NCBI GenBank assembly: GCA_021816865.1
Contig: JAKAWX010000003.1
Location: 34,681-98,680, forward strand
Source of the DNA: Thermoplasmata archaeon
Lineage (GTDB): Archaea > Thermoplasmatota > Thermoplasmata > Lutacidiplasmatales > UBA184
DNA: 64,000 bases
Direction of reading: 5' to 3'
In this document: positions 3,709 to 18,684 of the stretch, piece by piece
Layout of the letters: each line of letters begins with the position of its first letter
Position numbering within the stretch: the first letter of the stretch is position 1
The notes under the pieces: model-generated
Databases searched by the model: none
What the model was told of the DNA's origin: nothing
What the model saw: the letters and a program-made list of their open reading frames with translations, nothing else
Program-made: the position numbers and the translations under genes

Positions 3709-3769
3709 GCGGGGGAGGCAGCTCCACGGCGATACCCCACGGAACCACGGAAGCGGAGGGCTAGGTTTC

Positions 3770-4660
3770 GTGGGGTTCAACCCTTTCCTGGTCGCCCTCA
3801 TCGGGGGTCTGGGCGTCGGCAGCCTCTACGTAGTCTTCGCGCTCGGCATGAACCTCCTGATCGGGGTCATGCGAGTGATCAACTTCACGCACGGGTACCT
3901 CATGCTGCTCGGTTCGTACCTGACGTACTTCCTCTGGGAGTGGTACGGCCTGAACCCGCTCCTCTCGCTGCTGGTAGTGATGCCGGCGCTTTTCGCGGTC
4001 GGGGTCCTCTTCCACTTCCTCATGGTCCAGCCGGTGCTGAAGCGGCCGTACTTCGAGGACACGACCCTGCTCCTCACGTTCGCGGGCCTGCTCATCCTGG
4101 ACAACATCTTCGTCAAGCTCTGGACCGACAACCAGCGTCAGGTCCCGACGATCTACTTCAACACGCCCGTGATCTTTTCGACGCCGTGGGGGGACGCGGT
4201 CCTTTCCCAGGTCGTCCTGATCGGCGCGGGTCTCGCGGCGGCGGCGACGCTCACCCTCGGTCTCTTCCTCCGATTCACCTGGACGGGCCGCGCGATGCGG
4301 GCCGCAAGCCAGGACCTCCTCGCGGCCCGGCTCCTCGGGATCCCGGCGACACGGCTCTACGCGATCAGCTTCGGCATCTCGGGCGTTCTCGCGGGGATCG
4401 CCGGGGTCGTCGTCGCGATGGAGTTCCTCTTCTACCCGGAGTTCGGGTTCAGCTACCTTCTCAAGGCGTTCGGCGTGATCATGATGGGGGGCCTGGGGAG
4501 CCTCGTCGGGACGATCGCGGGGGGCCTCACGCTCGGTGTGGCCGAGTCGCTGACGGCTTGGGTGTACAACGGGGCCTACGGAACGTGGGCGAACGGGGCG
4601 GCGTACGTGGCGATCCTGGTCGCGCTCGCGGTCCGCGCCCTCTTGGGGAAGTCCCGGTGA
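3770..4660 (+). CDS. livH: Branched-chain amino acid ABC transporter permease (LivH-like)
   Basis: GTG at 3770 (VGFNPFLVALIGGLGVGSLYVVFALGMNLLIGV...). Multi-TM protein, 296 aa. The stop overlaps the next start (GTGA). Confidence 0.85.
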   Translation: MGFNPFLVALIGGLGVGSLYVVFALGMNLLIGVMRVINFTHGYLMLLGSYLTYFLWEWYGLNPLLSLLVVMPALFAVGVLFHFLMVQPVLKRPYFEDTTLLLTFAGLLILDNIFVKLWTDNQRQVPTIYFNTPVIFSTPWGDAVLSQVVLIGAGLAAAATLTLGLFLRFTWTGRAMRAASQDLLAARLLGIPATRLYAISFGISGVLAGIAGVVVAMEFLFYPEFGFSYLLKAFGVIMMGGLGSLVGTIAGGLTLGVAESLTAWVYNGAYGTWANGAAYVAILVALAVRALLGKSR

Positions 4661-5652
4661 GCGCGCCGGTCCTTCCCGCCGCCGCTCCGGCGCCGACGGG
4701 GTTTCGCGGCCTCGGCACCCGCCTCGCGCGCTGGAACCACCGTCGGACGCTCCTCATCGTGGTCTTCGCGCTCCTCGCACTCCTCCCGGTCCTCTACCCG
4801 AGCCCGTACACCCTGGCGACCGTCCTCTTCTACGTCCCGTGGTACCTCGCGATGGCCCAGAGCTGGAACATCTCGGGCGGTTTCAGCGGCCAGCTGAGCT
4901 TCGGGCACTGGGGCCTCCTCGGCGTCGGCGCCTACACGAGCGCGATCTTTGCGGTGACCTACGGCTGGAACGTGGTGAGCGCGATGGCCATGGCGGCCGT
5001 CGTGACGTTCCTGCTCGGGCTGCTCATCGGCTACGTCGGCTCCGCGCTCCGAGGACCGTACTTCGCGATCGCCACGCTCGCGGCGGCCGCGCTCATCCAG
5101 CTCGTCGTCCTCAATTGGAAGTCGGTCACCCTCGGTTCGCTCGGCTTTCCGATCTTCTACATCCTCCTCTCCCCGTCCGACCTCTACTACGGCGCGCTCG
5201 CGCTCGGCGCCGTCGCGACGGCGATGGTCTATCTGATCAGCCGCAGCCGCATCGGGCTCGCCTTCGAGGCGGTCCGGGAGAACGAGGACCTCGCGACCGC
5301 GTCGGGCATCTATGCGCGGGGGTACAAGGCGCTCGCGTTCGGCCTGAGCGGCGCCATCATGGGACCGGTCGGTGGGCTCTACGCCTTCGCGTCGCACTAC
5401 ATCGACCCGACGTCCGCCTTCAACCTGCTCTACAACCTCCAGATCATCCTCATGGTCGTGGTCGGGGGGCGGGGCAAGGTGCTCGGCCCCATCGTCGCCG
5501 CGGTCGTCTTCGCCTGGGTCTTCGAGGTCGCGCTGACGAGCTTCAACGTCTACAATTACCTCATCACGGGGGTCGTGATCTTCGCGGCCGTCCTCCTCGT
5601 ACCCCGCGGGATCTTCGGGTTCCGGGGGATCCCCAAGGTCCTCCAGTTCTGA
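4657..5652 (+). CDS. livM: Branched-chain amino acid ABC transporter permease (LivM-like)
   Basis: GTG at 4657 overlaps the livH stop. Motifs AQSWNISGGFSGQLSFGHWGLLGVGAYT and a multi-TM body. Confidence 0.85.
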   Translation: MSAPVLPAAAPAPTGFRGLGTRLARWNHRRTLLIVVFALLALLPVLYPSPYTLATVLFYVPWYLAMAQSWNISGGFSGQLSFGHWGLLGVGAYTSAIFAVTYGWNVVSAMAMAAVVTFLLGLLIGYVGSALRGPYFAIATLAAAALIQLVVLNWKSVTLGSLGFPIFYILLSPSDLYYGALALGAVATAMVYLISRSRIGLAFEAVRENEDLATASGIYARGYKALAFGLSGAIMGPVGGLYAFASHYIDPTSAFNLLYNLQIILMVVVGGRGKVLGPIVAAVVFAWVFEVALTSFNVYNYLITGVVIFAAVLLVPRGIFGFRGIPKVLQF

Positions 5653-5693
5653 GCACCGGCGAGACGCCGGCGCCCGGTCCCCCGGGACCGGAC

Positions 5694-6458
5694 CTACATT
5701 CCGAGCACAGCCCGCCGGATCTCCGGGTGGTCGAGGAGCTCGCGCGCGTTCCCCTGGTCGACGATCCGGCCCTGGGAGAGCACGTAGGCCCGGTCGGCGA
5801 GCTGGAGGATCTGGCGGACGTTCTGCTCCACGGCGAAGACCGTCACGCCCCGGCTTGTGAGCGAGCGGAGCGTCTGGAACACGCGGGCCACGACCTGGGG
5901 GGCGAGGCCGAGCGACGGCTCGTCGACCATGAGAATGCGCGGGCGGCTCATCAGCGCCCGGCCGATCGCGAGCATCTGCGCCTCCCCGCCCGAGAGGGTC
6001 TTCGCCGACTGCCGCGCGCGCTCCTTGAGGATCGGGAACATCGCACAGACCTCCTCGTACGTCTCGCGGAAGCGCGCCCGGGCGGCCGGTAGGTAGGCGC
6101 CGAGGGAGAGATTGTCGTGGACGCTCATGTTGGGGAAGACGTGGCGGCCCTCGGGGACGAGCGAGATCCCGGCACCTACGATCGCTTCGGGGGAGCGACC
6201 GGTCAGCTTTCGTTCGCCGAGGTGCGTCGTGCCGCCGAGGGTCGGGATGAGTCCCGTCACCGCGCGGAGGAGCGTCGTCTTCCCCGCACCGTTCGGGCCC
6301 ACGAGGGTCGTGAACTGCCCCTCGGGGATCTCGAGGCTCACGTCGTGGAGGACGTCCATCCGGTCGTAGCCCGCTCGAAGCGAGTCGATCCGGAGGGCCG
6401 GGAAACCGGTCGCCGTGCCGGGGCTCGAGGTCGGGACGGCGGACGGGGTCGACGCCAT
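5694..6458 (-). CDS. livF: ABC transporter ATP-binding protein (LivF-like)
   Basis: Walker A GPNGAGKTT, signature LSGGEAQML, Walker B ILMVDEPSLGLAP. Confidence 0.85.
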   Translation of the reverse strand: MASTPSAVPTSSPGTATGFPALRIDSLRAGYDRMDVLHDVSLEIPEGQFTTLVGPNGAGKTTLLRAVTGLIPTLGGTTHLGERKLTGRSPEAIVGAGISLVPEGRHVFPNMSVHDNLSLGAYLPAARARFRETYEEVCAMFPILKERARQSAKTLSGGEAQMLAIGRALMSRPRILMVDEPSLGLAPQVVARVFQTLRSLTSRGVTVFAVEQNVRQILQLADRAYVLSQGRIVDQGNARELLDHPEIRRAVLGM

Positions 6459-6489: not shown

Positions 6490-7116
6490 TTAAGGGTTCG
6501 CGGAGGAGGGTCGGACGGCGAGAAGCTCGGCGGAGCTCACGACCGCCCCGACGGTTTCCTCGAGGTTCCGCAACGCCGCCCGGTGAAGCTCTTCGTCGAC
6601 CCCCGCCACCGCGTCCCGAACGACGACGACGTCGAGGTCCCGCGCGAACGCGTCCCGCGCCGTCGCGTCGACACAGACGTGGGAGAGGACGCCGGTCAGC
6701 ACCAGCGAGCGCACGCCGGCCCGTTCGAGGCGCTCGCCGAGGTCGGTCCCGAAAAAACCGGAGTACCGATTCTTGTAGACGACCGGTTCGTCCTCGGCCG
6801 GTGCGAGCTCGGGGACGATCTCCGTATCGGGCGAACCGGGCGTGAAGAAAGGGTCCGAGCGATTCGAATAGGCCCGGGGCAGGATCCGGTGCCGGCGCGC
6901 CGGATAGTCCGCCCCATCGGCCCGGTAGCGATACGCGGTGTAGAGCCGGGGAAGCCCGCTGGCCCGGAACGCGCCGCGCAACCGGACGATCGTTTCGGAA
7001 AGCGTTTCGGCGTCGCGCACCGGACGGCCGAGGTGTGCGTAGGCGCCGTGGGGACCGACGAACCCGACCTGCATGTCGACGATCAATAGCGCCGGACGTT
7101 CGAACGACGAGAGCAT
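6490..7116 (-). CDS. Isochorismatase-family cysteine hydrolase
   Basis: PALLIVDMQVGF... and VLTGVLSHVCVDATARDA, typical of the isochorismatase/cysteine hydrolase fold. 208 aa, ATG start. Confidence 0.8.
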   Translation of the reverse strand: MLSSFERPALLIVDMQVGFVGPHGAYAHLGRPVRDAETLSETIVRLRGAFRASGLPRLYTAYRYRADGADYPARRHRILPRAYSNRSDPFFTPGSPDTEIVPELAPAEDEPVVYKNRYSGFFGTDLGERLERAGVRSLVLTGVLSHVCVDATARDAFARDLDVVVVRDAVAGVDEELHRAALRNLEETVGAVVSSAELLAVRPSSANP

Positions 7117-7138
7117 TCGGTGAGCATCGAGAGGAGGG

Positions 7139-7146
7139 ATTTAAGG
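7139..7146. promoter_or_regulatory. Candidate shared TATA element (atttaagg) for two divergent, probably leaderless genes
   Basis: The only AT-rich patch in the 57-nt spacer. It lies about 25 nt from the ATG at 7116 (minus strand) and about 30 nt from the ATG at 7174 (plus strand). Confidence 0.3.
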
Positions 7147-7173
7147 AGGGGAGGACTGCCCGGGACGGTTCTC

Positions 7174-8379
7174 ATGGGTTCGTTGAGACGGCCGCTCGAA
7201 GGGCTGAACGTCGTGGAGCTTTCCCAAGGGATCGCCGGCCCGTACTGCGCGATGGTGCTCGCCGACCTCGGCGCGGACGTGGTGAAGGTCGAGATCCCGG
7301 GCGCGGGCGACCTCGCCCGAGGGTGGGGTCCGCCGTTCGCCTCCCCGCACAACTCGGCGTACTTCCTCTCGGTCAACCGCAACAAGCGCTCGATCGAGCT
7401 CGACCTCAAGACGCCGTTCGGCAAGGAGGTGCTGCGACGCCTCCTCGAAGACGCGGACGTGCTGGTCGAGAACTTCCGCCCCGGCACGATGGCCGACCTC
7501 GGCTTCGACCTCGCGACCCTGCGGTCGATCCGAGCGGACCTCTTGGTCGCATCGATCACCGGCTACGGGCCGGAGGGACCGAGCCGCAACGACCCTTCCT
7601 TCGACCTCATCGCGCAGGCGCGATCGGGGCTGATGAGCGTCACCGGCACGGTCACCGGGGAACCTATCCGGGTCGGGATCGCCCTCTTCGACCTAGCGGC
7701 GGGGCTCTACGCCGCCATCGGAATCCTCACCCAACTGCGCGAACGGGACGCGGGGCGTCCGTCCGTCCCGGTGGAGGTCAACCTGCTCGACACCTCGGTC
7801 TCGATGTTGACCCACTGGTTGCCGATCCTGAGCCTCGAAGGGAAAGTTCCCCCGCCGAGCGGCACCGCGCACCCGCTGATCGTCCCCTACCAGGTCTTCC
7901 CGACCCGGGAGGGGTTCGTCGCGCTCGGAGTGTCGACCGACATCCTCTGGCACCGGTTCTGCGGCGCGCTCGGGCTCGAGGCGATCGAGAACGACCCGAA
8001 GTTCTCGACGAACGCGGCCCGCGTCGCCCACCGAGGGGAAGTCCTCGCGCACGTGCTCCCCGCGCTCGCCCGGTGGACCGCGTCCGAGGCCGCCCGCGAG
8101 CTCAACCGGTCGGGCGTCCCGTGCGCGGTCGTCGCGCGCATCGAAGACCTCCCGCGCGACCCCCAGGTCGAGTTCAACCGCTCGGTCGTGACCATGCCCG
8201 CCCCGCACGCGGGCCCGGTGATGGTCGGGGGCTCGCCGCTCCGCTCATTGCTTCCCGAAGGAGACCCGCTCGTCCACCGTCCGGCACCGGACCTCGGCGA
8301 ACACACGGAGGAGGTCCTCCGCGAGCTTAAAGTCGCGCGACCCCCCCCTCTCACGTCGGGACCGGCGGGCCGCTCATGA
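7174..8379 (+). CDS. Family III CoA-transferase (CaiB/BaiF-like)
   Basis: LEGLNVVELSQGIAGPYCAMVLADLGADVVKVE. The ATG at 7174 is preferred over the GTG at 7120, which lies 4 nt from the divergent start. Confidence 0.8.
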   Translation: MGSLRRPLEGLNVVELSQGIAGPYCAMVLADLGADVVKVEIPGAGDLARGWGPPFASPHNSAYFLSVNRNKRSIELDLKTPFGKEVLRRLLEDADVLVENFRPGTMADLGFDLATLRSIRADLLVASITGYGPEGPSRNDPSFDLIAQARSGLMSVTGTVTGEPIRVGIALFDLAAGLYAAIGILTQLRERDAGRPSVPVEVNLLDTSVSMLTHWLPILSLEGKVPPPSGTAHPLIVPYQVFPTREGFVALGVSTDILWHRFCGALGLEAIENDPKFSTNAARVAHRGEVLAHVLPALARWTASEAARELNRSGVPCAVVARIEDLPRDPQVEFNRSVVTMPAPHAGPVMVGGSPLRSLLPEGDPLVHRPAPDLGEHTEEVLRELKVARPPPLTSGPAGRS

Positions 8380-9194
8380 GGGCCATCGATGTCGTGGCCA
8401 ACCTGCGCAACGAGCACTACGTCACCGCCATCCGGCCCTACATGGAGGAGGCGTGGAGGACCCTGCGCCAGGACATGGACCGCCTCGTCATCGCGCCCGA
8501 GACGATGGTCGAGGAGATGGACCGGGCTGGGATCGAGCGGGCGTTCCTGGTCGCGGCGAAGGGGGAGGGCTGGGAGGTCCCCTACGAGGACGTCGCCCGG
8601 GTCGTCCGCGAGTACCCCGACAAGTTCTCCGCGCTGGCCGGGTTCAATCCGTTCCACGGGATGAAAGGCGTCGCCCGGCTCGCCGAGGCGGTCGAAAAGC
8701 ACGGGTTCATCGGGGCGCACGTCTACCCGCACTGGTTCCGCCGGCCGCCGAACGATGCGATCTACTACCCGTTCTACGCGAAGTGCGTGGAACTCGATAT
8801 CCCGGTCCAGATGCAGGTCGGCCACGCGACGCCGAACACCTACCTCCCGTCGGTGGCGCGGCCGATCCTGCTCGAGGACATCGCGATCTATTTCCGCGAC
8901 CTCAAGATCATCGGGATCCACCTCGGCTACCCCTGGACCGAGGAGATGATCTCGGTCGCCTACCGGTTCCCGAACGTCTTCATCGCCCCCGACGCGCATG
9001 CTCCCAAGTACTGGGAGCCACGGTTCGTCGAGTACCTGCGCACCCGCGGGTCGAGGAAGGTCCTCTTCGGTACCGATTACCCGATCGTCGGGTTCGAGCG
9101 CGCCCTCAAGGAGCTCGCGGACCACCGACTGCCCGACCACGTCCTCGAGCGGTTCCTGCGCGAGAACGCCCGGGAGGTCTACCGGCTTCCGTGA
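8376..9194 (+). CDS. Amidohydrolase-2 family protein (ACMSD/decarboxylase-hydrolase type, PF04909-like)
   Basis: ATGA overlap with the upstream gene. C-terminal VLFGTDYPIV...FLRENAREVY is typical of the family. Confidence 0.7.
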   Translation: MRAIDVVANLRNEHYVTAIRPYMEEAWRTLRQDMDRLVIAPETMVEEMDRAGIERAFLVAAKGEGWEVPYEDVARVVREYPDKFSALAGFNPFHGMKGVARLAEAVEKHGFIGAHVYPHWFRRPPNDAIYYPFYAKCVELDIPVQMQVGHATPNTYLPSVARPILLEDIAIYFRDLKIIGIHLGYPWTEEMISVAYRFPNVFIAPDAHAPKYWEPRFVEYLRTRGSRKVLFGTDYPIVGFERALKELADHRLPDHVLERFLRENAREVYRLP

Positions 9195-9265
9195 CGGTGC
9201 GAGGATAGGACCCGAGCGCTGATGAGCGATATCGCCGTACGCCGCAAGAGGACCGAACGAGTGCG

Positions 9266-10162
9266 ATGACCGGAACCGAGCCCCGGCCGACGCTGCGGAG
9301 CCGCATCGCGCACGGGCCGATCGTCGTGGCGCCCGGCGCGTACGACGCCCTCTCGGCGCGCCTCGTCGAGCAGGCCGGCTTCCCGGCGGTGTACGCGAGC
9401 GGCGCCGGCGCGTCGTACAGTCTCCTCGGCGCTCCCGACATCGGGCTTCTCTCCTTGGCCGAGATGCGCGACCAGGTCGCCCGCATCGCGAACGCGGTCC
9501 GCATCCCCGTGATCGCCGACGGCGACACCGGTCACGGGAACGCGCTCAACGTCCAAAGGACCGTCCGCGAGTTCGAAGCGGCCGGAGCGGCGGCGATCCA
9601 GCTCGAGGACCAGACGTTCCCGAAACGGTGCGGCCATCTGAGCGAGAAGACCGTCGTTCCTCGCGCCGAGATGGAGGGGAAGGTCCGGGCGGCGGTGGAC
9701 GCCCGGCGCTCCTCCGAGACGCTGATCATCGCACGGACCGACGCCCTCGCGGTCGAAGGGACGGCCTCCGCGATCGCTCGGCTACGGGCGTACGCCGGCG
9801 CCGGCGCGGACCTGCTCTTCCTCGAGGCCCCGCCCGACGTCGACACCATGCGGCAGGCGTGCGCGTCCCTCGAGTGGCCGATGATGGCGAACATGGTCGA
9901 AGGGGGAAAGACCCCGCTTCTGACCACGCGGGAACTCGAGGAGATCGGCTACCGCCTTGTGATCTTCCCCGGGGCCGGGGCGAGGATCGCCGCGTACGCT
10001 CTTCGGGAGCTCTACACGACGCTCGGACGCGAAGGGTCGACCTCCTCGATGCTCGACCGGATGCTCCTCTTCGACGACCTCAACCGGGTCGTGGACCTCC
10101 CGGGGATTCGTGCCTCCGGTCGAAAGTACGAGCCCGACTCGGCCGGAGCCAAGACGCCATGA
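9266..10162 (+). CDS. Isocitrate lyase/PEP mutase superfamily lyase (methylisocitrate lyase / dimethylmalate lyase-like)
   Basis: APGAYDALSARL, IADGDTGHGN and QLEDQTFPKRCGH motifs. Confidence 0.8.
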   Translation: MTGTEPRPTLRSRIAHGPIVVAPGAYDALSARLVEQAGFPAVYASGAGASYSLLGAPDIGLLSLAEMRDQVARIANAVRIPVIADGDTGHGNALNVQRTVREFEAAGAAAIQLEDQTFPKRCGHLSEKTVVPRAEMEGKVRAAVDARRSSETLIIARTDALAVEGTASAIARLRAYAGAGADLLFLEAPPDVDTMRQACASLEWPMMANMVEGGKTPLLTTRELEEIGYRLVIFPGAGARIAAYALRELYTTLGREGSTSSMLDRMLLFDDLNRVVDLPGIRASGRKYEPDSAGAKTP

Positions 10163-11445
10163 GCCGACCCCAGACGCAGATCGAACGGATCCTCTCGCGC
10201 CATTCCACCGAAGCGCCCGGACGCGCCGTCGACCCCGACGATTTCGTGGAGGTCGAAGTGGACCGGCTGGTCCTGCTCGACATGGCCGCGACCCACCCCG
10301 AGTTCCTCGCCCACCTCCCTCGCCGGGTCCATCGGCCCGAGCGAGTCGCCTGGGTTTTCGACCACCTCGTCCCGGCCCCGACCGTCGAGCTCGCCTCGGG
10401 TCTCGTGAAGCTCCGGGAGCTCGCCCGGCGCTGGGGGATCTCGCACGTCTTCGACATCGGCCGGGGCGGTATCTCGCACCCGCTGGTGGCGGAGCGGGGG
10501 TGGGTGCGACCCGGCGAGATCCTCGCCAACACCGACTCCCACACCTGCGCCGCGGGGGCGCTCGGCTGCGCCGGCCGCGGGGTCGGGATGCTCGAGGTGA
10601 TGAGCATCCTCTGCACGGGCCGCACCTGGTACCGGGTCGGTGAGACGGTCCGCGCGTCCCTGAGCGGTCGACTCCCTGATGCGGTCGCGGGAAAGGACGT
10701 CTTCCTTTCGCTCGCGGGCGACCTGGGAGCGATCCCCGGCCGCAATATCGAATTCGCGGGCGACGGGATCGCGGCCCTCCCGATCCCTACGCGCCAGGCG
10801 ATCGCCACGATGTGCGCGGAGATCAGCGCCGAGTTCGCGCTCTTCCCCTGCGATGCCCGTGCCCTCGACTACGTCCGGGCGCGGGTTCCGTCCGGCGAAC
10901 CCGTCGAGTCGGTGGGCCCGGATCCCGAGGCCGCGTACGCAAAGGAGTGGACCGTCGACCTTGCCACCGTCGTGCCGCTGGTCGCCCTGCCGCACCGGGT
11001 CGCGCGGAACGTGCGGCCCGTCTCGGAGGTCGAAGGCGTGCCGATCACCCGGGCCGTCGTCGGGTCGTGCGCGAACGGGACGATCGAAGACCTCGAGGAG
11101 GTCGCCCGGGTGCTGCACGGACGGGCGGTGCATCCCGATGTCGTCTTCACGGTCACGCCCAACACGGCGGAGGTCTTCGCGGAGGCCGCGCGCCGCGGAC
11201 TGGTCGACCGGATCCTGGCGGCCGGCGCGCTCGTCACGAGCCCCACCTGCGGGGCCTGCTTCGGGGGCCACATGGGAGTGCTGGGAGACGGAGAGGTGTG
11301 CGTCACGAGCACGACCCGGAACTTTCAGGGCCGGATGGGCTCCCCGAACGCGAAGATCTACCTCGCGTCGAGCGCGACCGTGGCGGCGAGTGCGGTGGCG
11401 GGGCATCTCGCCGACCCCCGGGGCATCGCCCGAGGCCCCTCGTGA
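10159..11445 (+). CDS. Aconitase-family dehydratase large subunit (LeuC/HacA/DmdA-like)
   Basis: ATGA overlap at 10159-10162. Motifs NTDSHTCAAGALG, GSCANG, CGACFGG and TTRNFQGRMG. Confidence 0.85.
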   Translation: MSRPQTQIERILSRHSTEAPGRAVDPDDFVEVEVDRLVLLDMAATHPEFLAHLPRRVHRPERVAWVFDHLVPAPTVELASGLVKLRELARRWGISHVFDIGRGGISHPLVAERGWVRPGEILANTDSHTCAAGALGCAGRGVGMLEVMSILCTGRTWYRVGETVRASLSGRLPDAVAGKDVFLSLAGDLGAIPGRNIEFAGDGIAALPIPTRQAIATMCAEISAEFALFPCDARALDYVRARVPSGEPVESVGPDPEAAYAKEWTVDLATVVPLVALPHRVARNVRPVSEVEGVPITRAVVGSCANGTIEDLEEVARVLHGRAVHPDVVFTVTPNTAEVFAEAARRGLVDRILAAGALVTSPTCGACFGGHMGVLGDGEVCVTSTTRNFQGRMGSPNAKIYLASSATVAASAVAGHLADPRGIARGPS

Positions 11446-11927
11446 AGCTGGTCGGCCGGGCCTGGGTCTTCGAGGACGACATCAACACCGACCTGCTCTA
11501 CCCCGCCGCCTGCTTCCGTCTACCCGCCGCAGACCGGCCCGCGCTCACGATGAGCGCGAACCGCCCGGGGTGGTCGGGCCAGGTGCGGCCCGGTGACCTG
11601 CTCGTCGCGGGCGCGAACTTCGGCACCGGCTCCTCGCGTCCGGCGGCGGACAACCTGAAGGCGCTCGGGATCGCCGGCGTTGTCGCGGAATCGATCAACG
11701 GTCTGTTCTTCCGGACCGCGATCAACACGGGACTTCCCGCGCTGGAGGCCCCGGGCGTGCGGGCGTTCGTGCGAGAGGGCGCGGTCGTCGAGGTCGACCT
11801 CGACGCGGGGACGATCCGCGCGGACGGACGCGAACTGACGGTCAAGCCGCTCCCCGGCTTCCTCGCGCGGATCCTCGCGGACGGGGGGCTCATTCCCCGA
11901 CTTCGCAAGGAAGGGTATATCGACTAG
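11442..11927 (+). CDS. Aconitase-family dehydratase small subunit (LeuD/DmdB-like)
   Basis: GTGA overlap at 11442-11445. Motifs GRAWVFEDDINTDLLYP and GANFGTGSSR. Confidence 0.8.
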   Translation: MKLVGRAWVFEDDINTDLLYPAACFRLPAADRPALTMSANRPGWSGQVRPGDLLVAGANFGTGSSRPAADNLKALGIAGVVAESINGLFFRTAINTGLPALEAPGVRAFVREGAVVEVDLDAGTIRADGRELTVKPLPGFLARILADGGLIPRLRKEGYID

Positions 11928-11956
11928 CGGCGCTCCGCCCCCTCCGAGGCACGCGA

Positions 11957-12646
11957 ATGCATCCATGGGACGCGACGCTGGGAGAGCTCGATCGGCAGGT
12001 CATCCGCGCCGCCGGCTACGGCAAGGAGCGCCCGTTGGGGAACTCCCCGGTGCTGCTGGTCATCGACGCGCAGTACAACTACGTCGGCGAGGACCTCCCG
12101 ATCCTGGAGTCGATCCAGAAGTTTCCGACGAGCGTCGGCCGCTCGGCGTACGAGGCGCTGCCCAAGGTGCTCGCGCTCGTCCGCGCCTTCCGGGAGAAGA
12201 AACGGCCCGTCCTCTTCACGACCGTCGCGCCGAAGGAGGCCCTGCTCCCCTTCTCGATCAGCGGCCGCGTCCACGCCGACCGCCGGTCGGAGACGCTCGT
12301 GGCGGGTCACAAGGGCACCGAGATCGTCGAAGCGCTGCGGCCGGAGCCGGGGGAGCTCGTCCTCGACAAGGCGTTCGCGAGCGCCTTCCTCGGGACCCCG
12401 CTCGCGACGATCCTCACGCTCCAACGCGCCGATACCGTGGTCGTCTGCGGAGGGACCACGAGCGGATGCGTCCGCGGAACGGCCGTCGACGCGGCGGGGC
12501 TCGGCTACAGCGTCGTCGTCGCCGAAGATGCGGTCTTCGACCGGATCCAACTCTCCCACGCCGCGAACCTCCTCGACCTCTGGATGAAGTACGCGAACGT
12601 GTTCCGGGCCCAGCGGGTCGTCGACTGGGTGCGCTCGCTCCCATGA
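11957..12646 (+). CDS. Isochorismatase-family hydrolase (amidase-like)
   Basis: VLLVIDAQYNYV and VVVCGGTTSGCVRGTAVDA motifs. 229 aa. Confidence 0.8.
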   Translation: MHPWDATLGELDRQVIRAAGYGKERPLGNSPVLLVIDAQYNYVGEDLPILESIQKFPTSVGRSAYEALPKVLALVRAFREKKRPVLFTTVAPKEALLPFSISGRVHADRRSETLVAGHKGTEIVEALRPEPGELVLDKAFASAFLGTPLATILTLQRADTVVVCGGTTSGCVRGTAVDAAGLGYSVVVAEDAVFDRIQLSHAANLLDLWMKYANVFRAQRVVDWVRSLP

Positions 12647-14028
12647 GCGAGCTCGTCCTACGCAACGCCCGCCTCGTCTTCCCCCATGCGGGGGTCGTGG
12701 AGGGCGAGGTCGGGGTCTCCGGCGGCCGTATCGACGCGGTGGGGAAGGACCTCGGTCGCGGCGACCGCGAGGTCGACGTGCACGGCGCCTTCGTGGGCCC
12801 GGGGATCGTCGATCCCCACACGCACGTCGGGATCTACCGGCCCGCCGAGGAGGATGCCCGGACCGAGTCGGAGTGTGCCGTGCGGGGCGGCGTCACGACG
12901 ATGGTCACGTACTGGCGCGTCGGCGAGCCCTACACCGACGGCCTCGTGGAGTACGGCCGCGCGTTTCCGGCGTTCCGCGCCCGGCTCGAGGGACGGATGC
13001 ACGCCGACTACGCCGTCAACCTCGGGATGCTGACCCGCGCGCACCTCGCCGAGGTCCCCGACCTCGTACGGAACGAGGGCGTCACGACCCTCAAGTACTT
13101 CGCCCACTACGAGGGACGGGCCGATATCGGGCGTGACCTCGATTCCGGGTACTTCTACTCGCTCGCCGAAGCGGTCGCGCGCCTTCGGCGCGACGTTCCT
13201 GCCGTGCGGCTGAGCGTCCACAGCGAGGACCCGTACATCGTACGGGAGGCGACCGACCGGGAGAAGCAGCACGGCGGGAACGACCTCGAGGCGTATCGCC
13301 GCTCGCGCCCCGAGGTCGCGGAAGCGGTGGCGGTCGCCCGGCTGGGGGAGACCGCCCTCGCGACCGGGGCACCCGTCTATCTTCCTCACGTGAGCTCCGC
13401 GCTCGGATACTCCCGGGCGGCCGAATACGTCGCCCGGGGCGCCGACCTCACGATCGAGACCAGCCTCCACTACCTTACCCTCACGAGCGACGGCCCGGCG
13501 GGCCTCCTCGCGAAAGTCAACCCTGCCGTGCGGCGAACCGAGGATGTCGAGTCCCTGTGGGCAGCGGTCGCTCGCGGCGGGCTCCGCTGCATCGGCAGCG
13601 ACCACGCCTCCAACCTGCGCGCGGAGAAGTCGGAGCTCTGGAGCGCGAAGCCGGCGTTCGCCGGCACGGGCCTCCTCCTTCCGCTCCTCTTCGAGGAAGG
13701 GGTAGTCCGTCGCCGGGTCCTCTCCCCCGAGTCCCTGTGGGGGATCCTCGCCGAGAACAACGCGAAGGCGCACGGGCTCTTCCCGCGGAAGGGAGCGCTC
13801 GTGCCGGGCGCGGACGCCGACCTTGTCGTCGTCGAGAAGCTCGCGACCCCCCGGCGCGTGACCGCGGAGTACGTGCACTCGGCGGCCGACTACTCCCCGT
13901 ATGAGGGCCGGGAGCTCCGCTACGCGCCCACCCGGACGTTCGTGCGCGGGGAGCTCGTCGCGGACGAGTCGGGCGTGCGTTCGCCGGGAACGGGCGCCTA
14001 CCTGCGCCGTCCCCTCGGGCCCGGTTGA
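12643..14028 (+). CDS. Cyclic amidohydrolase (hydantoinase/dihydropyrimidinase/enamidase-like)
   Basis: ATGA overlap at 12643-12646. Motifs GIVDPHTHVG, GSDHASN and VPGADADLVVV. 461 aa. Confidence 0.85.
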   Translation: MSELVLRNARLVFPHAGVVEGEVGVSGGRIDAVGKDLGRGDREVDVHGAFVGPGIVDPHTHVGIYRPAEEDARTESECAVRGGVTTMVTYWRVGEPYTDGLVEYGRAFPAFRARLEGRMHADYAVNLGMLTRAHLAEVPDLVRNEGVTTLKYFAHYEGRADIGRDLDSGYFYSLAEAVARLRRDVPAVRLSVHSEDPYIVREATDREKQHGGNDLEAYRRSRPEVAEAVAVARLGETALATGAPVYLPHVSSALGYSRAAEYVARGADLTIETSLHYLTLTSDGPAGLLAKVNPAVRRTEDVESLWAAVARGGLRCIGSDHASNLRAEKSELWSAKPAFAGTGLLLPLLFEEGVVRRRVLSPESLWGILAENNAKAHGLFPRKGALVPGADADLVVVEKLATPRRVTAEYVHSAADYSPYEGRELRYAPTRTFVRGELVADESGVRSPGTGAYLRRPLGPG

Positions 14029-14044: not shown

Positions 14045-15424
14045 CTACGCCGCCCGCGCGCGAACGAACTCGCCGCGCGCCGGGAGGTCGGGGACGCTGC
14101 CGGGAAACGTCCCCTCCGCGACCGTCACGCCGCGGCTGACCGTGCGCACGGGGACTCCCGTGAGCGACCAGCCCTCGAACATGGTGAACTCGCTGTGGTG
14201 GTGGAGCCCCTCGTTGCGGATCTTCGTCGTCGCCTTCGGGTCGACGAGAACGAAGTCCGCGTCCGAGCCCGGCAGCAGGACCCCCTTGCGAGGATAGTAG
14301 CCGAAGCGTCGCGCCGGTCCTTCGGCGAGGAGGTAGAGGAGCCGGTCCCAGTCGAGACGGCCGGCGAACGCCTCTCCGAGCATCACCGGGTACATCGTCT
14401 CGCTGCCCGGAAAGCCCGGCGGGATCGCGAAGATGTCCTCCGCGCCCGGCGCTTTCTCCGAGCTCGGCGCGGCGTGGTCGGAGGCGAGGAAGTCGACCGT
14501 CCCGTCGCGCACCCCGGCCCACATCGCCTCGACCTCGGCGCGGCTCCTGAGCGGAGGGTTGACCTTCGCGTACGGTCCGCGGTCGCGGTAGGCCGACGTG
14601 TCGAAGAAGAGGTAGTGCGGGCATGTCTCGACCGAGAGGTCGGCGCCGGCAGCCCGGGCCGCGCGCACGGTGGGGAGGGTGAATCCGCTCGACAGGTGTA
14701 CGATGTGCACCGCGGACCCCGCCGCGCGTCCGATCCGCGCCACGCGGGCGACCGCATCGTCCTCGGCGAGGGTGGGCCGGGAGTCGGTGTACACCTCGGG
14801 CGTCGTCCGTCCGGTCTCCCGGAGGCGGCGGGTCGCCTCCGCCACGATCGACGGGTTCTCGGCGTGGACCTCGAGCGGAGCGCCGGTGCCGGCGAGTCGT
14901 TCGGCGACCGCCAGCAGGGTCGCGTCGTCGCACGCGGTGTACTCCCCGACGGGGTTCCAGCCCATGTAGACCTTCACGCCCGCCACGCCGGCCCGCACGA
15001 GCTCGGGGATCTCGGCGAGGTTGCCGGCGCAACCGCCCGCGTGAACTCCGAAGTCGACGAGCGCGTTCGCCCGACCGAGGGCGACCTTCGCCTCGAGCGA
15101 CGCGAGCGTGAGCGTCGGCGGGCAGTGCGGGGGTGTCGAGGCGGCCTGCTCGACGAAGGTCGTGACCCCGCCCGAAGCGCAGAGCCGGCTGCCCGTTCCG
15201 ATGTCGGTGCGCTCCGGCCGGCCGTAGGTGAAGTGCGTGTGCGTGTCCACGGCCCCGGGCAGCAAAAGCTGGCCGTGGGCGTCGATCGTCCGGTCCGCGT
15301 TCGGGAGGTGGACGTCCTTCGCGATCCGCACGATGCGGCCGCGCTCGACGGCGAGTCCCGCCGCGACCCATTCGCCCCGCCAGCGAAGTCGCGCCGACCG
15401 GACGATGAGGTCGACCGGGCTCAC
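14045..15424 (-). CDS. Cyclic amidohydrolase (allantoinase/hydantoinase/dihydroorotase-like)
   Basis: The GTG at 15424 overlaps the stop of the upstream gene. Motifs LLPGAVDTHTHF, ASDHAP and LPGSDADFVLVDP. 459 aa. Confidence 0.85.
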   Translation of the reverse strand: MSPVDLIVRSARLRWRGEWVAAGLAVERGRIVRIAKDVHLPNADRTIDAHGQLLLPGAVDTHTHFTYGRPERTDIGTGSRLCASGGVTTFVEQAASTPPHCPPTLTLASLEAKVALGRANALVDFGVHAGGCAGNLAEIPELVRAGVAGVKVYMGWNPVGEYTACDDATLLAVAERLAGTGAPLEVHAENPSIVAEATRRLRETGRTTPEVYTDSRPTLAEDDAVARVARIGRAAGSAVHIVHLSSGFTLPTVRAARAAGADLSVETCPHYLFFDTSAYRDRGPYAKVNPPLRSRAEVEAMWAGVRDGTVDFLASDHAAPSSEKAPGAEDIFAIPPGFPGSETMYPVMLGEAFAGRLDWDRLLYLLAEGPARRFGYYPRKGVLLPGSDADFVLVDPKATTKIRNEGLHHHSEFTMFEGWSLTGVPVRTVSRGVTVAEGTFPGSVPDLPARGEFVRARAA

Positions 15425-16260
15425 GCCGGGCCGCCCCCCAAGCGAGCGACGACCGTCCCTCCGGGGTTCGTCCAGCCCGAGCGGAAGTAGAACGCGGACT
15501 CGATGCGACGCGGGGCGAGGGGGAGGAGTTCCTCGTTCTCCGCCGGGTAGAGCTCGAGCTCGCCGGTCCCGCGCCACACGTCGGTGACGACGCGGCCGGT
15601 CGTTTGCACGCGGACCAGCTCGTGGAGCGAGGGCGGTTGGCGCGGGTCCACGCTCGGGAAGTAGCGGACCCCGAAGTAGGTGCCGAGGGAAGGCAGGTCC
15701 TCCGGCCGAGCGGGTTCCTCGAGGGTCACCCCGGCGAAGAGGATCCGCTCGCCGTGCCGGGAGAGCACGCCCCCGAGCCGTGCGCCGGCGACGGCCGGTT
15801 TGAGGGTGGGGTGCAGCGGGTGGAGGCGAGTCATCCGCACCTGGGCCACCTTCTTCGGCCACCCGTTGAACCACCCGCGCATCATCGACCAATCGTGGTC
15901 GGTCCAGATGAACGGGAGGTAGACGCCCGACTCGCCCCGATACTGGCAGGGGACCGTCACGATCGCCTCCCCGTACTGGGTCGCCTCGGGCTGGCGGTAG
16001 GCGAGGTCGGCATCGCGGTCACCGACCGAGATCACCTCGGTGACCCGGACGGTGACCCGGTCGGGCTCGGGACCCGGTTCGAGCGGGGCCGGCAGGACCC
16101 GGCGAACGGCCTCCGGGTCCGCCCGGTACACCAACTGGATCACGTCGGACGCAAAGTGCCAGGGCGGATGGTCGACGAGGGAGCTCTTTCCTTCGGGACC
16201 GAACGGGGGAGTATACCCGGCACCGCCCGACGGGATCAACGGCCGCGGAAGCTCGGTCAT
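15421..16260 (-). CDS. Acetoacetate decarboxylase (ADC) family protein
   Basis: ATG at 16260. Motifs PPWHFASDVIQLVYRADPEAVRRVLPAPLEP and MMRGWFNGWPKK (compare the family's GRE.wGfPKK motif). 279 aa. Confidence 0.75.
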   Translation of the reverse strand: MTELPRPLIPSGGAGYTPPFGPEGKSSLVDHPPWHFASDVIQLVYRADPEAVRRVLPAPLEPGPEPDRVTVRVTEVISVGDRDADLAYRQPEATQYGEAIVTVPCQYRGESGVYLPFIWTDHDWSMMRGWFNGWPKKVAQVRMTRLHPLHPTLKPAVAGARLGGVLSRHGERILFAGVTLEEPARPEDLPSLGTYFGVRYFPSVDPRQPPSLHELVRVQTTGRVVTDVWRGTGELELYPAENEELLPLAPRRIESAFYFRSGWTNPGGTVVARLGGGPA

Positions 16261-16274: not shown

Positions 16275-17021
16275 TCAGGCGGAAGCGCTCGCCGCCGTCT
16301 CGGCTCGGCCGAGGTACGCTTCGAGTACCGCCGGATCCTGGCTCGCCGCCCGAACGTCGCCGCTGAACAGGAGCTGGCCGTGGTGGAGGACCAGGACCCG
16401 ATCGATCAGCTGGAAGAGCGACTCCACGACGTGCTCGGTGACGAGTAACGTGACCCCGCGAGCGTGGATCCGCCGGATGATCTCGACGATCTCGGCGAGC
16501 TCGGCCGGGTTGAGCCCGGCCATCACCTCGTCGAGGAGGAGGAGCTGCGGGGACGCGGCCAGCGCTCGGGCGACCTCGAGCCTCTTTCGCCCCGCGAGCG
16601 TGAGCTCGGTCGACCGTGCCGAGCGGCGGTCCGCGAGGCTCGTCATTTCGAGGACTTCGTCGACCGTCAGCGCGGCGGGGTCGCCCTTTCGGCGACGGCC
16701 CGCGCCGAAGAGCGCGCCGACCCGTACGTTCTGCTCGACCGTCAGGTCGGGGAACGCTTGGGCGAGCTGGAAAGTCTGGACCAGCCCGTGATGGCAGCGA
16801 CGGTGGGGCGCCCACCGAGTGACGTTCGTGCCCTTGAAGACGATCCGGCCGCTGGTCGGGGCGAGCATGCCCGACAGGAGGGCGAACAAGGTGCTCTTGC
16901 CGGCGCCGTTCGGTCCGATCAGCCCCAGGATCTCTCCTTCCGCGATCTCGAAGGTGATGTTCGAGACCGCGGTCACCCCCGCGAACCGCTTCGTGAGGGC
17001 TTCGCCCGCGAGTAAAGCCAC
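16275..17021 (-). CDS. livG: ABC transporter ATP-binding protein (LivG-like)
   Basis: LTKRFAGVTAVSNITFEIAEGEILGLIGPNGAGKST and LLLLDEVMAGLNP. The GTG at 17021 sits about 29 nt from a TATA-like ctttaag (17048-17053). An alternative GTG lies at 17108. Confidence 0.8.
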   Translation of the reverse strand: MALLAGEALTKRFAGVTAVSNITFEIAEGEILGLIGPNGAGKSTLFALLSGMLAPTSGRIVFKGTNVTRWAPHRRCHHGLVQTFQLAQAFPDLTVEQNVRVGALFGAGRRRKGDPAALTVDEVLEMTSLADRRSARSTELTLAGRKRLEVARALAASPQLLLLDEVMAGLNPAELAEIVEIIRRIHARGVTLLVTEHVVESLFQLIDRVLVLHHGQLLFSGDVRAASQDPAVLEAYLGRAETAASASA

Positions 17022-17337: not shown

Positions 17338-18675
17338 TCACGCGAGCTCGGCGAACAACTGGTGCGGGTCTTCGAGATAGGCTTTGACCGTCGCGAGGAA
17401 CTGGGCCCCATCGATCCCGTCGACCACGCGGTGATCGAGCGAGACCGAGAGGTTCATGATGTCGGCCGGGCCGATCGTCCCGTCCGCCCGGTACACGGGC
17501 CGTCGCTGGATCTTGTGGACCCCGAGAATGCCGACCTCGGGGTAATTGAGGATCGGCGTCGCGAGCAGCCCGCCGAGCGCCCCGAGGCTCGTGACGGTGA
17601 AGGTGCTGCCCGTGAGCTCGGCGCGGCCGAGCTTCCCCGCCTTCCCCCGCTCGGCGAGCTCCTGGATCTCTCGGGCGAGCTGCGAGACGCTCTTCTGTTC
17701 GGCGTTCCGGACGACGGGCACGATCAGTCCTTCGGGGGCCGCGGCCGCGATCCCGATGTGGTACGCCGAACGGACGACGAGCTCTTCGTGCGCATCGTCC
17801 ATCGTCGCGTTGAGCCGGGGGTGGGCCTTGAGCCCAGCGACGACCGCCTTCACGATGAACGGCAGGAAGCTGAGGCGGGTACCCTGCTTTTCCACGTGCT
17901 TGGCCATCCGGTCCCGAAGCCGCACGAGCTCGGAGACGTCGACCTCCTCGACGTAAGTGAAGTGCGCGGCCCGGTGCGTCGATTCCGTCATGTGATCGAA
18001 GATGACCCGACGGATCCCCCGGATCGGGATCCGTTCGCGGACCTCGGCCGCGGGGAAGAAAGGGCCTCCGGAAGCCGTGGGGGCCGCCGTACCGGTCGTG
18101 CGGGGCGTCGGGACGGGGGCCCCCGGGGTCGGCGCGGCGGAGCTCAGGGGCGCCGACGGGGCCGTCTTCTCCGCCGGGGCGTCGGCCAGGTCGGCTTCCG
18201 TTATCCGGCCGGCCGGCCCGCTCCCCTTCACGGTCGATAGGTCGATCCCGCGCTCCGCGGCGAGCCGCCGCACGTAGGGCGACGCGAGGAGGCGAGCGGG
18301 ACCTGAGCTTCCGCCGGGCAACGCCCGAGCCCCGGCGCCTTCCCCCGGCGGGGACGTTGACGAGGGGCGCGGCACCGCCGCGGGCGGAGCCGAAGTCCCG
18401 CCGCTCGGAATAGGAGCCCCCGGGCCGGGCGGACCGCCCGGGGTATCGATCGTGACGAGGAGACCACCGACCTTCACCTTGTCACCGACCTTCGCGTGCA
18501 GGGTCGCGATCCGACCCGACTTCGGCGACGGGATCTCGACGTTCGCCTTGTCGGTGAGGACGCTCACGAGAGGCTCGTCCTCGCGGATCGCATCGCCTTC
18601 CTTAACGAACCACTGGACGACCTCGCCCTCCGCGACCCCTTCGCCGATATCGGGAAGGCGGAACTCGAACGCCAT
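17338..18675 (-). CDS. 2-oxoacid dehydrogenase complex E2 (dihydrolipoamide acyltransferase)
   Basis: Lipoyl domain with LTDKANVEIPSP, a Pro/Ala linker, a peripheral subunit-binding domain (ASPYVRRLAAERGIDL), and a catalytic domain with LSVSLDHRVVDG. Confidence 0.9.
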   Translation of the reverse strand: MAFEFRLPDIGEGVAEGEVVQWFVKEGDAIREDEPLVSVLTDKANVEIPSPKSGRIATLHAKVGDKVKVGGLLVTIDTPGGPPGPGAPIPSGGTSAPPAAVPRPSSTSPPGEGAGARALPGGSSGPARLLASPYVRRLAAERGIDLSTVKGSGPAGRITEADLADAPAEKTAPSAPLSSAAPTPGAPVPTPRTTGTAAPTASGGPFFPAAEVRERIPIRGIRRVIFDHMTESTHRAAHFTYVEEVDVSELVRLRDRMAKHVEKQGTRLSFLPFIVKAVVAGLKAHPRLNATMDDAHEELVVRSAYHIGIAAAAPEGLIVPVVRNAEQKSVSQLAREIQELAERGKAGKLGRAELTGSTFTVTSLGALGGLLATPILNYPEVGILGVHKIQRRPVYRADGTIGPADIMNLSVSLDHRVVDGIDGAQFLATVKAYLEDPHQLFAELA

Positions 18676-18684
18676 CGTCCCCTC

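Follow-up and report, generated by a model that had tools for sequence, protein, structure and literature searches.

A conserved accessory gene island in Thermoplasmata archaea joining cyclic amidohydrolases, a LeuCD-like hydratase and a C-C lyase: a candidate route for catabolism of carboxylated cyclic imides or ureides

Organisation of the locus

The window analysed here, that is the whole stretch of 64,000 nucleotides (nt) at C9:34681-98680 (contig C9), was taken from an 11-contig metagenome-assembled genome (MAG) of 1.54 Mb, 83% complete and with ~70% G+C, and harbours a gene island whose core is a run of seven plus-strand genes at 7174-14028 encoding, in this order, a family III CoA-transferase, an Amidohydro_2 protein, a C-C lyase of the isocitrate lyase (ICL)/phosphoenolpyruvate (PEP)-mutase superfamily, the LeuC-like and LeuD-like subunits of a hydro-lyase, an isochorismatase-like cysteine hydrolase (Iso2) and a cyclic amidohydrolase (HydA). 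The nearest named homologues belong to 'Thermoplasmata archaeon' MAGs. Genes were mapped with a third-position G+C caller, validated on the window, together with the public gene calls for the identical contig, and families were assigned from Pfam, from NCBIfam models with their cut-offs and from bit scores to solved (PDB) relatives. The initial annotation, which had been made from the letters of the sequence, listed the same seven genes, and Pfam and NCBIfam confirmed every family it had given; the four 4-nt overlaps that it reported were likewise found, three of them reading ATGA (8376, 10159 and 12643) and one GTGA (11442). These overlaps couple the CoA-transferase to Amidohydro_2, the lyase to LeuC and LeuD, and Iso2 to HydA, while the remaining two junctions are gaps of 71 nt (Amidohydro_2/lyase) and 29 nt (LeuD/Iso2).

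The neighbours that had been named around this run, namely two Amidohydro_1 proteins, a second isochorismatase-like hydrolase (Iso1), an MmgE/PrpD protein, a member of the acetoacetate decarboxylase (ADC) family and the parts of a Liv-type ATP-binding cassette (ABC) importer at 2380-6458 and 16275-17021, were all recovered (Table 1). The short intergenic region between Iso1 and the CoA-transferase is likely to be the shared promoter region of both divergent units, and a bacterial-type scan of this archaeal locus returned no terminator and a single promoter-like site that is probably meaningless. On the minus strand the gene for HydB, a second cyclic amidohydrolase, overlaps the ADC-like gene by 4 nt. 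The importer binding protein and permeases are 72-97% identical in related loci, as compared to 70-86% for the ATPase at 16275-17021; the binding protein had no solved relative at E <= 1e-5 and no NCBIfam match, and consequently gives no clue to the ligand.

The island was observed to run on leftward past the window edge, where C9:30256-35388, a segment ending at window position 708, holds a short-chain dehydrogenase/reductase, a 491-amino-acid (aa) PrpD-like protein and cyclic amidohydrolases of 465 and 459 aa. The genes for the 491-aa PrpD-like protein and the 465-aa amidohydrolase overlap by 4 nt, so that there are two PrpD-like/hydantoinase-like pairs in total, and as the PrpD superfamily also holds epimerases and decarboxylases this pairing may be functional.

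Table 1. Genes and other features of the island, with positions in the window
Feature	Position (nt)	Strand	Basis or remark
Dihydropyrimidinase (DHP)/hydantoinase-type cyclic amidohydrolase, 459 aa, 3' end; fourth paralogue	1-708	+	Pfam Amidohydro_1; start at C9:34009, upstream of window
MmgE/PrpD-superfamily protein, 435 aa	691-1998	-	Pfam MmgE_PrpD_N/C
Peripla_BP_6 binding protein of Liv-type importer	2380-3708	+	Pfam
BPD_transp_2 permeases (two)	3770-4660, 4657-5652	+	Pfam
ABC ATPase, LivF/G-like	5694-6458	-	Pfam ABC_tran
Iso1, isochorismatase-like cysteine hydrolase, BiuH/RutB-like	6490-7116	-	Pfam
Divergent intergenic region, 57 nt, with TATA-like TTTAAG at ~7139-7146	7117-7173		Sequence read directly
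Family III CoA-transferase, dicarboxylate (glutarate/SUGCT-like) type	7174-8379	+	Pfam CoA_transf_3, 366 bits
Amidohydro_2, BB4693/3IRS subfamily	8376-9194	+	Pfam, 133 bits
C-C lyase of PrpB/petal death protein (PDP)/dimethylmalate lyase (DML) type, ICL/PEP-mutase superfamily	9266-10162	+	Pfam
LeuC-like [4Fe-4S] hydro-lyase large subunit	10159-11445	+	Pfam Aconitase, 256 bits
LeuD-like small subunit (Aconitase_C), Arg in substrate-recognition loop	11442-11927	+	TIGR02087
Iso2, isochorismatase-like cysteine hydrolase	11957-12646	+	Pfam, 109 bits
HydA, DHP/hydantoinase/allantoinase-type cyclic amidohydrolase, translationally coupled to Iso2	12643-14028	+	Pfam Amidohydro_1
HydB, second cyclic amidohydrolase, allantoinase-like, convergent with HydA	14045-15424	-	NCBIfam
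ADC-superfamily protein, MppR/Sbi00515 branch	15421-16260	-	Pfam ADC
Second importer ABC ATPase, heading the minus-strand unit	16275-17021	-	Pfam ABC_tran

Active sites and family placement of the enzymes

The lyase missed the cut-offs of both prpB models (TIGR02317, 291 bits against 354; PRK11320, 244 against 353) and was nearly equidistant from the solved petal death protein (210 bits), PrpB (192) and DML (191). The superfamily motifs are present, with KRCGH at 120-124 and DGDTG at 85-89, the latter supplying D85 and D87 of the metal site. The segment that reads NITEFG in PrpB is NMVEGG in the cluster lyase, as compared to NMIEGG in petal death protein and NMVEHG in DML; the Thr of NITEFG is the residue that contacts the distal carboxylate of succinate, and its loss would speak against 2-methylisocitrate as the substrate, while a conserved Arg in the cluster lyase is the putative equivalent of PrpB Arg241. 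In a maximum-likelihood tree, the backbone of which was unresolved, the Thermoplasmata lyases formed their own clade together with the lyase of a Microvirga locus (L003; support 91/95), and the PrpB proteins of E. coli and Salmonella were placed apart from them. Most bacterial lyases that are linked to LeuCD-like genes grouped instead with Aspergillus niger DML (91/84), among them that of locus L021 (99/96 with DML).

The LeuC-like protein carries the cluster ligands Cys304, Cys364 and Cys367 and the NTDSHT motif, and its score of 413 bits exceeds the cut-off of 385 of NF001614, which is a subfamily-level model only; the PDB entry 4KP1 was matched with 283 bits. The LeuD-like protein contains GTGSSRP, and thus the GSSR motif of aconitase-superfamily small subunits, and reached 132 bits against the LeuD/DmdB family model TIGR02087 (cut-off 109). 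The biosynthetic equivalog models were missed by both subunits (TIGR02083, 334 against 611 bits; TIGR02084, 94 against 246), and a canonical leuA-leuC-leuD-leuB operon was located on contig C2, the LeuC and LeuD of which are 39% and 38% identical to the cluster copies. The recognition loop of the small subunit sets substrate preference in this enzyme class (PMC7308503), and this loop reads PAACFRLP in the cluster LeuD and GKYLTII in the canonical LeuD of the same genome. A survey of 80 loci established that Arg occurs in all Thermoplasmata copies (CFRL or CFRV) and in five bacterial loci where LeuCD adjoins a lyase, while the other loci have Leu, Phe, Tyr or His and Bathyarchaeia LeuD reads YLTS or YLTL. 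An Arg at this loop position, where it contacts the distal carboxylate, separates methanogen homoaconitase (YLRT) from isopropylmalate isomerase (YLVY), and the loop Arg of the cluster LeuD thereby suggests a substrate with an extra (third) anionic group.

The binuclear metal site of HydA is complete (H59/H61, K151, H192, H249 and D320), and an equivalent set of residues is present in HydB. HydA is equidistant from the solved D-hydantoinase (151 bits), allantoinase (149) and L-hydantoinase (145), and it missed all NCBIfam cut-offs (ErtD, 212 of 600 bits; allantoinase, 202 of 358; D-hydantoinase, 188 of 393; dihydroorotase (DHOase), 180 of 452). Its 42 solved relatives at E <= 1e-20 are all hydantoinases, allantoinases, dihydropyrimidinases (DHPases) or DHOases, and the enamidase of Eubacterium barkeri (PDB 2VUN) is not among them. 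For HydB the nearest family is allantoinase (328 and 317 bits against NCBIfam cut-offs of 631 and 358), and the two upstream paralogues scored 308-325 bits against cut-offs of 393-647, the one encoded at 1-708 matching dihydropyrimidinase models best, at 325 and 317 bits and under cut-off. The four paralogues are mutually 32-35% identical (35% for HydB and HydA), which marks them as old and probably differing in substrate.

Both cysteine hydrolases score above the Pfam cut-off and have an intact Asp-Lys-Cys triad, comprising D37-K138-C171 in Iso2 and D14-K115-C148 in Iso1. The solved relatives of Iso2 are N-carbamoylsarcosine amidase (103 bits), the maleamate amidases 4L07 (95) and 4L08 (91) and NicF (3UAO, 69), so that its scores for N-carbamoylsarcosine amidase and maleamate amidase are nearly tied. 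Iso1 matched the NCBIfam models BiuH (93 bits) and RutB (80 bits), both far under cut-off.

The CoA-transferase gave a full-profile Pfam match, with the succinate-glutarate/succinate-hydroxymethylglutarate CoA-transferase SUGCT (PDB 9BR6) as its best solved relative (255 bits), and scored 311 bits against a cut-off of 750 for the NCBIfam succinate-glutarate CoA-transferase model. The conserved Asp of family III CoA-transferases forms an anhydride intermediate, and the candidate catalytic residue is Asp172 within GIALFDLAAG, its position having been assigned by eye. Amidohydro_2 has a sole close solved member, 3IRS (BB4693, 80 bits), the next being LigJ at 34 bits. At the N-terminus, D5-x-V7-x-N9 stands in place of the HxH metal ligands and shows no variation among 24 aligned homologues, and H115, H119, H182 and D234 are conserved; the subfamily comprises at least 3,974 homologues at E <= 1e-20. 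The ADC-like protein is closest to Sbi00515 (4ZBO, 138 bits), Swit_4259 (5UPB, 133) and MppR (4JM3, 125), which are Schiff-base aldolase-dehydratases acting on 2-oxo acids, it reached 140 bits against a cut-off of 380 for the NCBIfam MppR model and it has a Lys pair. For this ADC-like gene of the initial annotation a true acetoacetate decarboxylase was ruled out, since such enzymes scored 40 bits or less.

Conservation and modular make-up of the island

Six further Thermoplasmata species genomes and one metagenome contig have the same gene order, with proteins that are 62-98% identical. The set is 65-98% identical in the six species-representative genomes, and the metagenome contig, with proteins that are 62-84% identical, differs in its flanks and has no PrpD-like gene; it reads ADC-like, binding protein, two permeases, ATPase (minus strand), Iso1 (minus strand), CoA-transferase, Amidohydro_2, lyase, LeuC, LeuD, Iso2, HydA, HydB (minus strand) and ATPase (minus strand). 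The PrpD-like gene is present in four related archaeal loci and missing from the related locus L011. The gene arrangement is beyond chance. With Amidohydro_2 as marker, the island was detected in 7 of 150 species genomes of the genus (5 of 53 among the high-quality ones), and all 32 genomes that represented other genera of the class lacked the marker; as the set is kept in these seven congeners, the island is accessory, conserved and co-inherited. Beyond the genus, the nearest homologues are bacterial, at about 45-54% identity, which together with the narrow distribution suggests one acquisition in a sub-lineage. Literature searches covering imidase/maleate hydratase, dimethylmalate lyase/DmdAB, BB4693/3IRS and maleimides returned no description of this gene combination.

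The initial annotation had called for a comparison of gene neighbourhoods, and this revealed, besides the order kept in relatives, that the parts of the operon also occur apart in bacteria: on this comparison the operon is a fusion of three modules. The first, module A, consists of the lyase and the LeuCD-like hydratase. Bacterial LeuCD-like proteins of 45-54% identity are repeatedly linked to an ICL-family lyase, further frequent neighbours being a family III CoA-transferase, an acyl-CoA dehydrogenase or a PrpD-like gene. Such operons include locus L056, CoA-transferase-lyase-LeuC-LeuD in an Eremiobacterota MAG (L021), Amidohydro_1-CoA-transferase-LeuC-LeuD-lyase in a Rhodospirillaceae MAG, CoA-transferase-acyl-CoA dehydrogenase-lyase-ABC transporter, divergent from LeuCD, in Bosea sp. 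Root381 (L055), and lyase-LeuC-LeuD alone between insertion sequence (IS) elements on an Ancylobacter plasmid. In Streptantibioticus cattleyicolor the order is LeuC-LeuD-PrpD-like-PrpF-lyase (pSCATT 31221-36500, L097), and as the relatives of PrpF include methylitaconate isomerase this set, which belongs to a cultured strain, appears to serve an acid of the itaconate or aconitate type. Its LeuCD-like genes are among the actinobacterial ones with a Leu-type loop, which in Acidimicrobiia and Mycobacterium sp. BK086 (L046-L066) were linked to PrpD-like genes and CoA-transferases.

Module B comprises Amidohydro_2 and a CoA-activating enzyme. Its linkage was followed in 47 metagenome loci of at least 6 kb with an Amidohydro_2 protein of 44-52% identity and flanks of up to 8 kb. 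An AMP-forming ligase was present in 24 of these, in most cases as the next gene downstream and in the same orientation. A family III CoA-transferase was detected in 11, an isochorismatase-like hydrolase in 18 and an acyl-CoA dehydrogenase in 16. In Microvirga antarctica a lyase, a ligase, two Amidohydro_2 genes, an Iso gene, an ABC transporter and an ADC-like gene lie together, and a plasmid of Comamonas endophytica has TctC, Amidohydro_2, ligase, acyl-CoA dehydrogenase, hydrolase, Iso and two CE4 genes. The 3IRS-type Amidohydro_2 proteins, whose linkage to CoA ligases or CoA-transferases spans many bacterial phyla, appear to be a class of uncharacterised enzymes that work on or next to a CoA thioester.

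Module C consists of a ring opener and Iso2. The partner analysis separated the two cysteine hydrolases, as Iso1-type enzymes adjoin Amidohydro_2, the closest bacterial counterparts of Iso1 being those next to Amidohydro_2 in Microvirga and Roseomonas, and Iso2-type enzymes adjoin a ring opener. The Iso2-type neighbour is constant across ring-opener families: its partner is the ATP-dependent HyuAB in locus L004, two CE4 'polysaccharide deacetylase' proteins in others (Comamonas plasmid, L170, L176) and a DHP-type hydrolase in L131 and in this window. Proven cyclic imidases are known from the CE4 family, as is the allantoinase PuuE (PMC9304392). This non-orthologous swap of the ring opener beside a constant amidase partner represents the strongest evidence that the pathway would begin by opening a cyclic amide hydrolytically and then deamidate the product.

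Several neighbouring genes were recorded outside the island. At C9:25417-28556, ~6-9 kb left of the window, lie genes for an E3-like dihydrolipoamide dehydrogenase of 480 aa, an additional E1-alpha-like protein and a lipoate-protein ligase, so that the E1alpha-E1beta-E2 operon at window 17338-20759 has an E3 in its neighbourhood. At 20873-24145 a MOSC-domain protein (minus strand) is followed by an ABC-2 type exporter with one ATPase and two ABC2_membrane proteins, a stretch that appears unrelated to the cluster. A glyoxylate-shunt pair is encoded ~35 kb downstream on the plus strand, consisting of malate synthase (49389-50969) and true isocitrate lyase (50966-52306), and could be a sink for glyoxylate or acyl-CoA derived from the cluster; on the minus strand, at 52352-55429, there follow genes for an acyl-CoA dehydrogenase and for another family III CoA-transferase, which is extended by ~200 aa at its N-terminus.

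Possible function and comparison with known systems

We consider it about an even chance (roughly 50%) that this accessory island serves the catabolism of one or a few small carboxylated N-heterocycles of the cyclic-imide or cyclic-ureide type. In such a pathway the compound would be imported by the Liv-type ABC system, a step that rests on family assignment, while the subsequent steps are drawn from family chemistry and gene linkage. The ring would be opened by the binuclear-metal cyclic amidohydrolases (HydA, HydB and the two encoded just upstream), and Iso2 would hydrolyse the linear half-amide or N-carbamoyl product with release of ammonia. The remaining alkyl- or carboxyalkyl-substituted maleate, or 2-alkylmalate, would then be hydrated or isomerised by the LeuCD-like Fe-S hydro-lyase and the product cut by the PrpB/DML/PDP-like lyase to a 2-oxo acid and a carboxylic acid. 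The CoA-transferase, the 3IRS-type Amidohydro_2 and Iso1 would represent a second conserved module that handles an acid as its CoA ester, and the MppR/Sbi00515-like protein is probably involved in processing a 2-oxo-enoate or 4-hydroxy-2-oxo acid. The proposal builds on the observed gene content, intact active sites, translational coupling, co-inheritance and modular recurrence, and from these we infer a single substrate for all modules, the sequence of the steps and the nature of the ring. The initial annotation had likewise proposed import and degradation of a cyclic amide, and while its family assignments and general idea hold, the nicotinate variant with an enamidase that it entertained is not supported.

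With respect to the ring, an imide best explains why a maleate-type hydratase and lyase should be joined to hydrolases. Each step would then have a precedent in a fitting family, with maleamate amidase, then maleate or dimethylmaleate hydratase, and finally dimethylmalate lyase. Two observations favour a ureide (hydantoin) ring instead, namely that opening of hydantoin or allantoin rings is established for HyuAB, CE4 and DHP-type enzymes alike and that the top match of Iso2 is a carbamoyl-amino-acid amidase. Several points weigh against the proposed pathway in either form. No enzyme reaches an equivalog cut-off, so that no substrate can be named, and the three modules, being separate in bacteria, do not have to share a substrate. 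The product of a ureide ring would be an amino acid, and it is not obvious how this would enter a LeuCD-type hydratase, and an imide ring needs one amidase where the cluster has two, plus four ring hydrolases. In the tree, with its unresolved backbone, the archaeal lyase was placed not with DML but as sister to a Microvirga lyase that has no LeuCD neighbour. The linkage that speaks for a CoA-dependent step, a CoA ligase or CoA-transferase in 33 of the 47 Amidohydro_2 loci, comes without a background rate.

A more specific, and in our view improbable, version holds that the island is a catabolic route for substituted maleimides from oxidised chlorophyll, haem and bilins, whose substrates could be hematinic acid, methyl-ethyl-maleimide and methyl-vinyl-maleimide as monopyrrole fragments. 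The several DHP-type hydrolases would serve as imidases that differ in the ring substituents they accept, removal of the amide would fall to the maleamate-amidase-like cysteine hydrolases, and the Arg-bearing LeuCD-like enzyme would hydrate carboxyethyl-methyl-maleate (formally 2-methyl-cis-homoaconitate). The PrpB/PDP-like lyase would then yield pyruvate and glutarate, the glutarate-type CoA-transferase would activate the glutarate, and the MppR/Sbi00515-like enzyme would handle the 2-oxo-3-enoate expected from a vinyl-substituted ring. This version would make sense of details that are otherwise odd, such as the number of imidases, the Arg-type hydratase, the pyruvate-type lyase, the glutarate-type CoA-transferase and the 2-oxo-enoate enzyme. 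Substituted maleimides are reported in plant material (PMC7318184), and the literature search on maleimides returned no description of their microbial degradation.

The rival that deserves most attention, possible although we would not favour it, is that two or three independent pathways are co-located, each with its own substrate: an alkylmaleate/alkylmalate module (lyase and LeuCD), a hydantoin/ureide nitrogen-scavenging module (Hyd paralogues and Iso2) and a CoA-dependent acid module (CoA-transferase, Amidohydro_2, Iso1 and ADC-like protein). It draws on the ICL-LeuC-LeuD set that stands alone between IS elements on the Ancylobacter plasmid, on Comamonas, which has Amidohydro_2, ligase, acyl-CoA dehydrogenase, Iso and CE4 without lyase or LeuCD, and on Microvirga, which has lyase, ligase, Amidohydro_2, Iso and ADC but neither LeuCD nor any DHP-type hydrolase. 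The archaeal genes, however, form one packed plus-strand run with overlaps inside the modules and only the two short gaps at the module boundaries, they are accompanied by a single importer, and seven species have co-inherited the complete set with its order unchanged. The methylcitrate cycle was a further candidate, in a variant for propionyl-CoA that would employ the PrpD-like, LeuCD-like and PrpB-like proteins, with the CoA-transferase activating propionate and the amidohydrolases being unrelated. The chemistry of the three families fits, the cluster holds the only PrpD-family genes and the only PrpB-type gene of the MAG, three citrate-synthase-family genes are present elsewhere in the genome and the LeuD-loop Arg would suit a tricarboxylate. 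The PrpD-like protein, however, scored 45.7 bits against a cut-off of 950 and the 491-aa PrpD-like protein had no match at 1e-10; the lyase does not reach the prpB cut-off and stands apart from the E. coli/Salmonella PrpB clade, with NMVEGG in place of NITEFG, as in DML and PDP. There is no citrate synthase in the cluster, PrpD is missing from L011, which retains everything else, and absence of the island from 143 of 150 congeners would be odd for housekeeping detoxification. The methylcitrate cycle was accordingly largely rejected on the PrpD and PrpB scores, the motif and the tree placement, and we regard it as quite unlikely.

The terminal part of an E. barkeri-type nicotinate fermentation, in which enamidase would be followed by DmdAB and Dml, recalls the cluster in that a LeuCD-type hydratase is coupled to an ICL-family lyase, in the LeuD score above the cut-off of the LeuD/DmdB family model and in the four Mo-hydroxylase large subunits encoded elsewhere in the genome, on other contigs. 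The cluster, however, lacks a Mo-hydroxylase, 6-hydroxynicotinate reductase, the 2-(hydroxymethyl)glutarate enzymes, a B12 mutase and a PrpF-type isomerase, the single gene with a B12-binding domain lies at a distance on another contig, no enamidase appears among the solved relatives of HydA, and the LeuD-loop Arg is unexpected for uncharged dimethylmaleate. This fermentation was rejected as upstream genes and enamidase similarity are wanting, and we hold it to be very improbable. An accidental cluster of leucine/isoleucine (LeuCD) and pyrimidine (PyrC) biosynthesis genes is favoured by family-level similarity only and is effectively refuted by the separate leucine operon on C2, by a PyrC-like dihydroorotase gene on contig C6 and by the leuC, leuD and pyrC equivalog cut-offs, which were all missed by wide margins; the absence of the island from most congeners likewise speaks against it. 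None of the three assignments that the initial annotation had named as speaking against its reading, to leucine biosynthesis, pyrimidine biosynthesis or the methylcitrate cycle, was borne out.

If the proposed catabolism of carboxylated cyclic imides or ureides is correct, it would represent a hydrolytic route for organic-nitrogen ring compounds in uncultured, small-genome soil and peat archaea, and it would provide a working context for three large uncharacterised groups of enzymes, that is for 3IRS-type Amidohydro_2 proteins, for non-biosynthetic LeuCD-like hydratases with varied loops and for Iso2-type amidases. As the modules also occur in cultured bacteria (S. cattleyicolor, Bosea sp. Root381, Comamonas endophytica and M. 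antarctica), the chemistry is testable without an archaeal culture.

Among characterised systems, E. barkeri DmdAB (2,3-dimethylmaleate hydratase) with Dml (2,3-dimethylmalate lyase) shares with the cluster the direct coupling of a two-subunit LeuCD-type Fe-S hydratase to a lyase of the ICL/PEP-mutase family, which in Dml-type systems breaks a substituted malate down to a 2-oxo acid and a short acid. The cluster LeuD matches the LeuD/DmdB model and bacterial LeuCD-linked lyases group with DML, a comparison that was made through the solved A. niger enzyme (PDB 3FA3) and not through E. barkeri sequences. In contrast to the E. barkeri system, the archaeal cluster is without the rest of the nicotinate pathway, its lyase was not placed in the DML clade, its LeuD carries the loop Arg, and the hydratase-lyase pair is joined to amidohydrolases, cysteine hydrolases and a CoA-transferase. 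The methylcitrate cycle (PrpD, aconitase and PrpB) employs the same three superfamilies and the same logic of dehydration, rehydration and cleavage, while the archaeal genes differ in failing the PrpD and PrpB tests, in having no linked PrpC and in their accessory distribution. A cyclic-imide pathway comprising imidase, half-amidase and then maleate hydratase has reportedly been described biochemically in Blastobacter sp. A17p-4. In Aspergillus nidulans the cyclic imidase HxnM and the amidase HxnN catalyse such steps (PMC9304392). The common logic is hydrolytic ring opening, half-amide hydrolysis with release of ammonia and hydration of an unsaturated dicarboxylate; the families differ, as the archaeal ring opener is of the DHP type and the amidase is an isochorismatase-like cysteine hydrolase, and the archaeal cluster additionally holds a C-C lyase, a CoA-transferase, Amidohydro_2 and an MppR-like protein. 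The creatinine/N-methylhydantoin route, in which N-carbamoylsarcosine amidase acts after hydantoinase, and the NicF/Ami maleamate amidases of nicotinate and nicotine catabolism provide the closest solved relatives of Iso2, which has the same Asp-Lys-Cys triad and is coupled to a ring opener. The archaeal cluster lacks sarcosine-handling and ring-cleaving dioxygenase genes; the similarity of Iso2 is too low to choose between a ureide and a half-amide substrate. SUGCT, the best solved and NCBIfam relative of the CoA-transferase, shares the family III fold and the candidate Asp, with a score well below the model's cut-off. The enzyme families and the overall logic are known; what is new is the way in which they are combined, their presence in an archaeon, the LeuD with its loop Arg and the linkage of the Amidohydro_2 subfamily to CoA enzymes.

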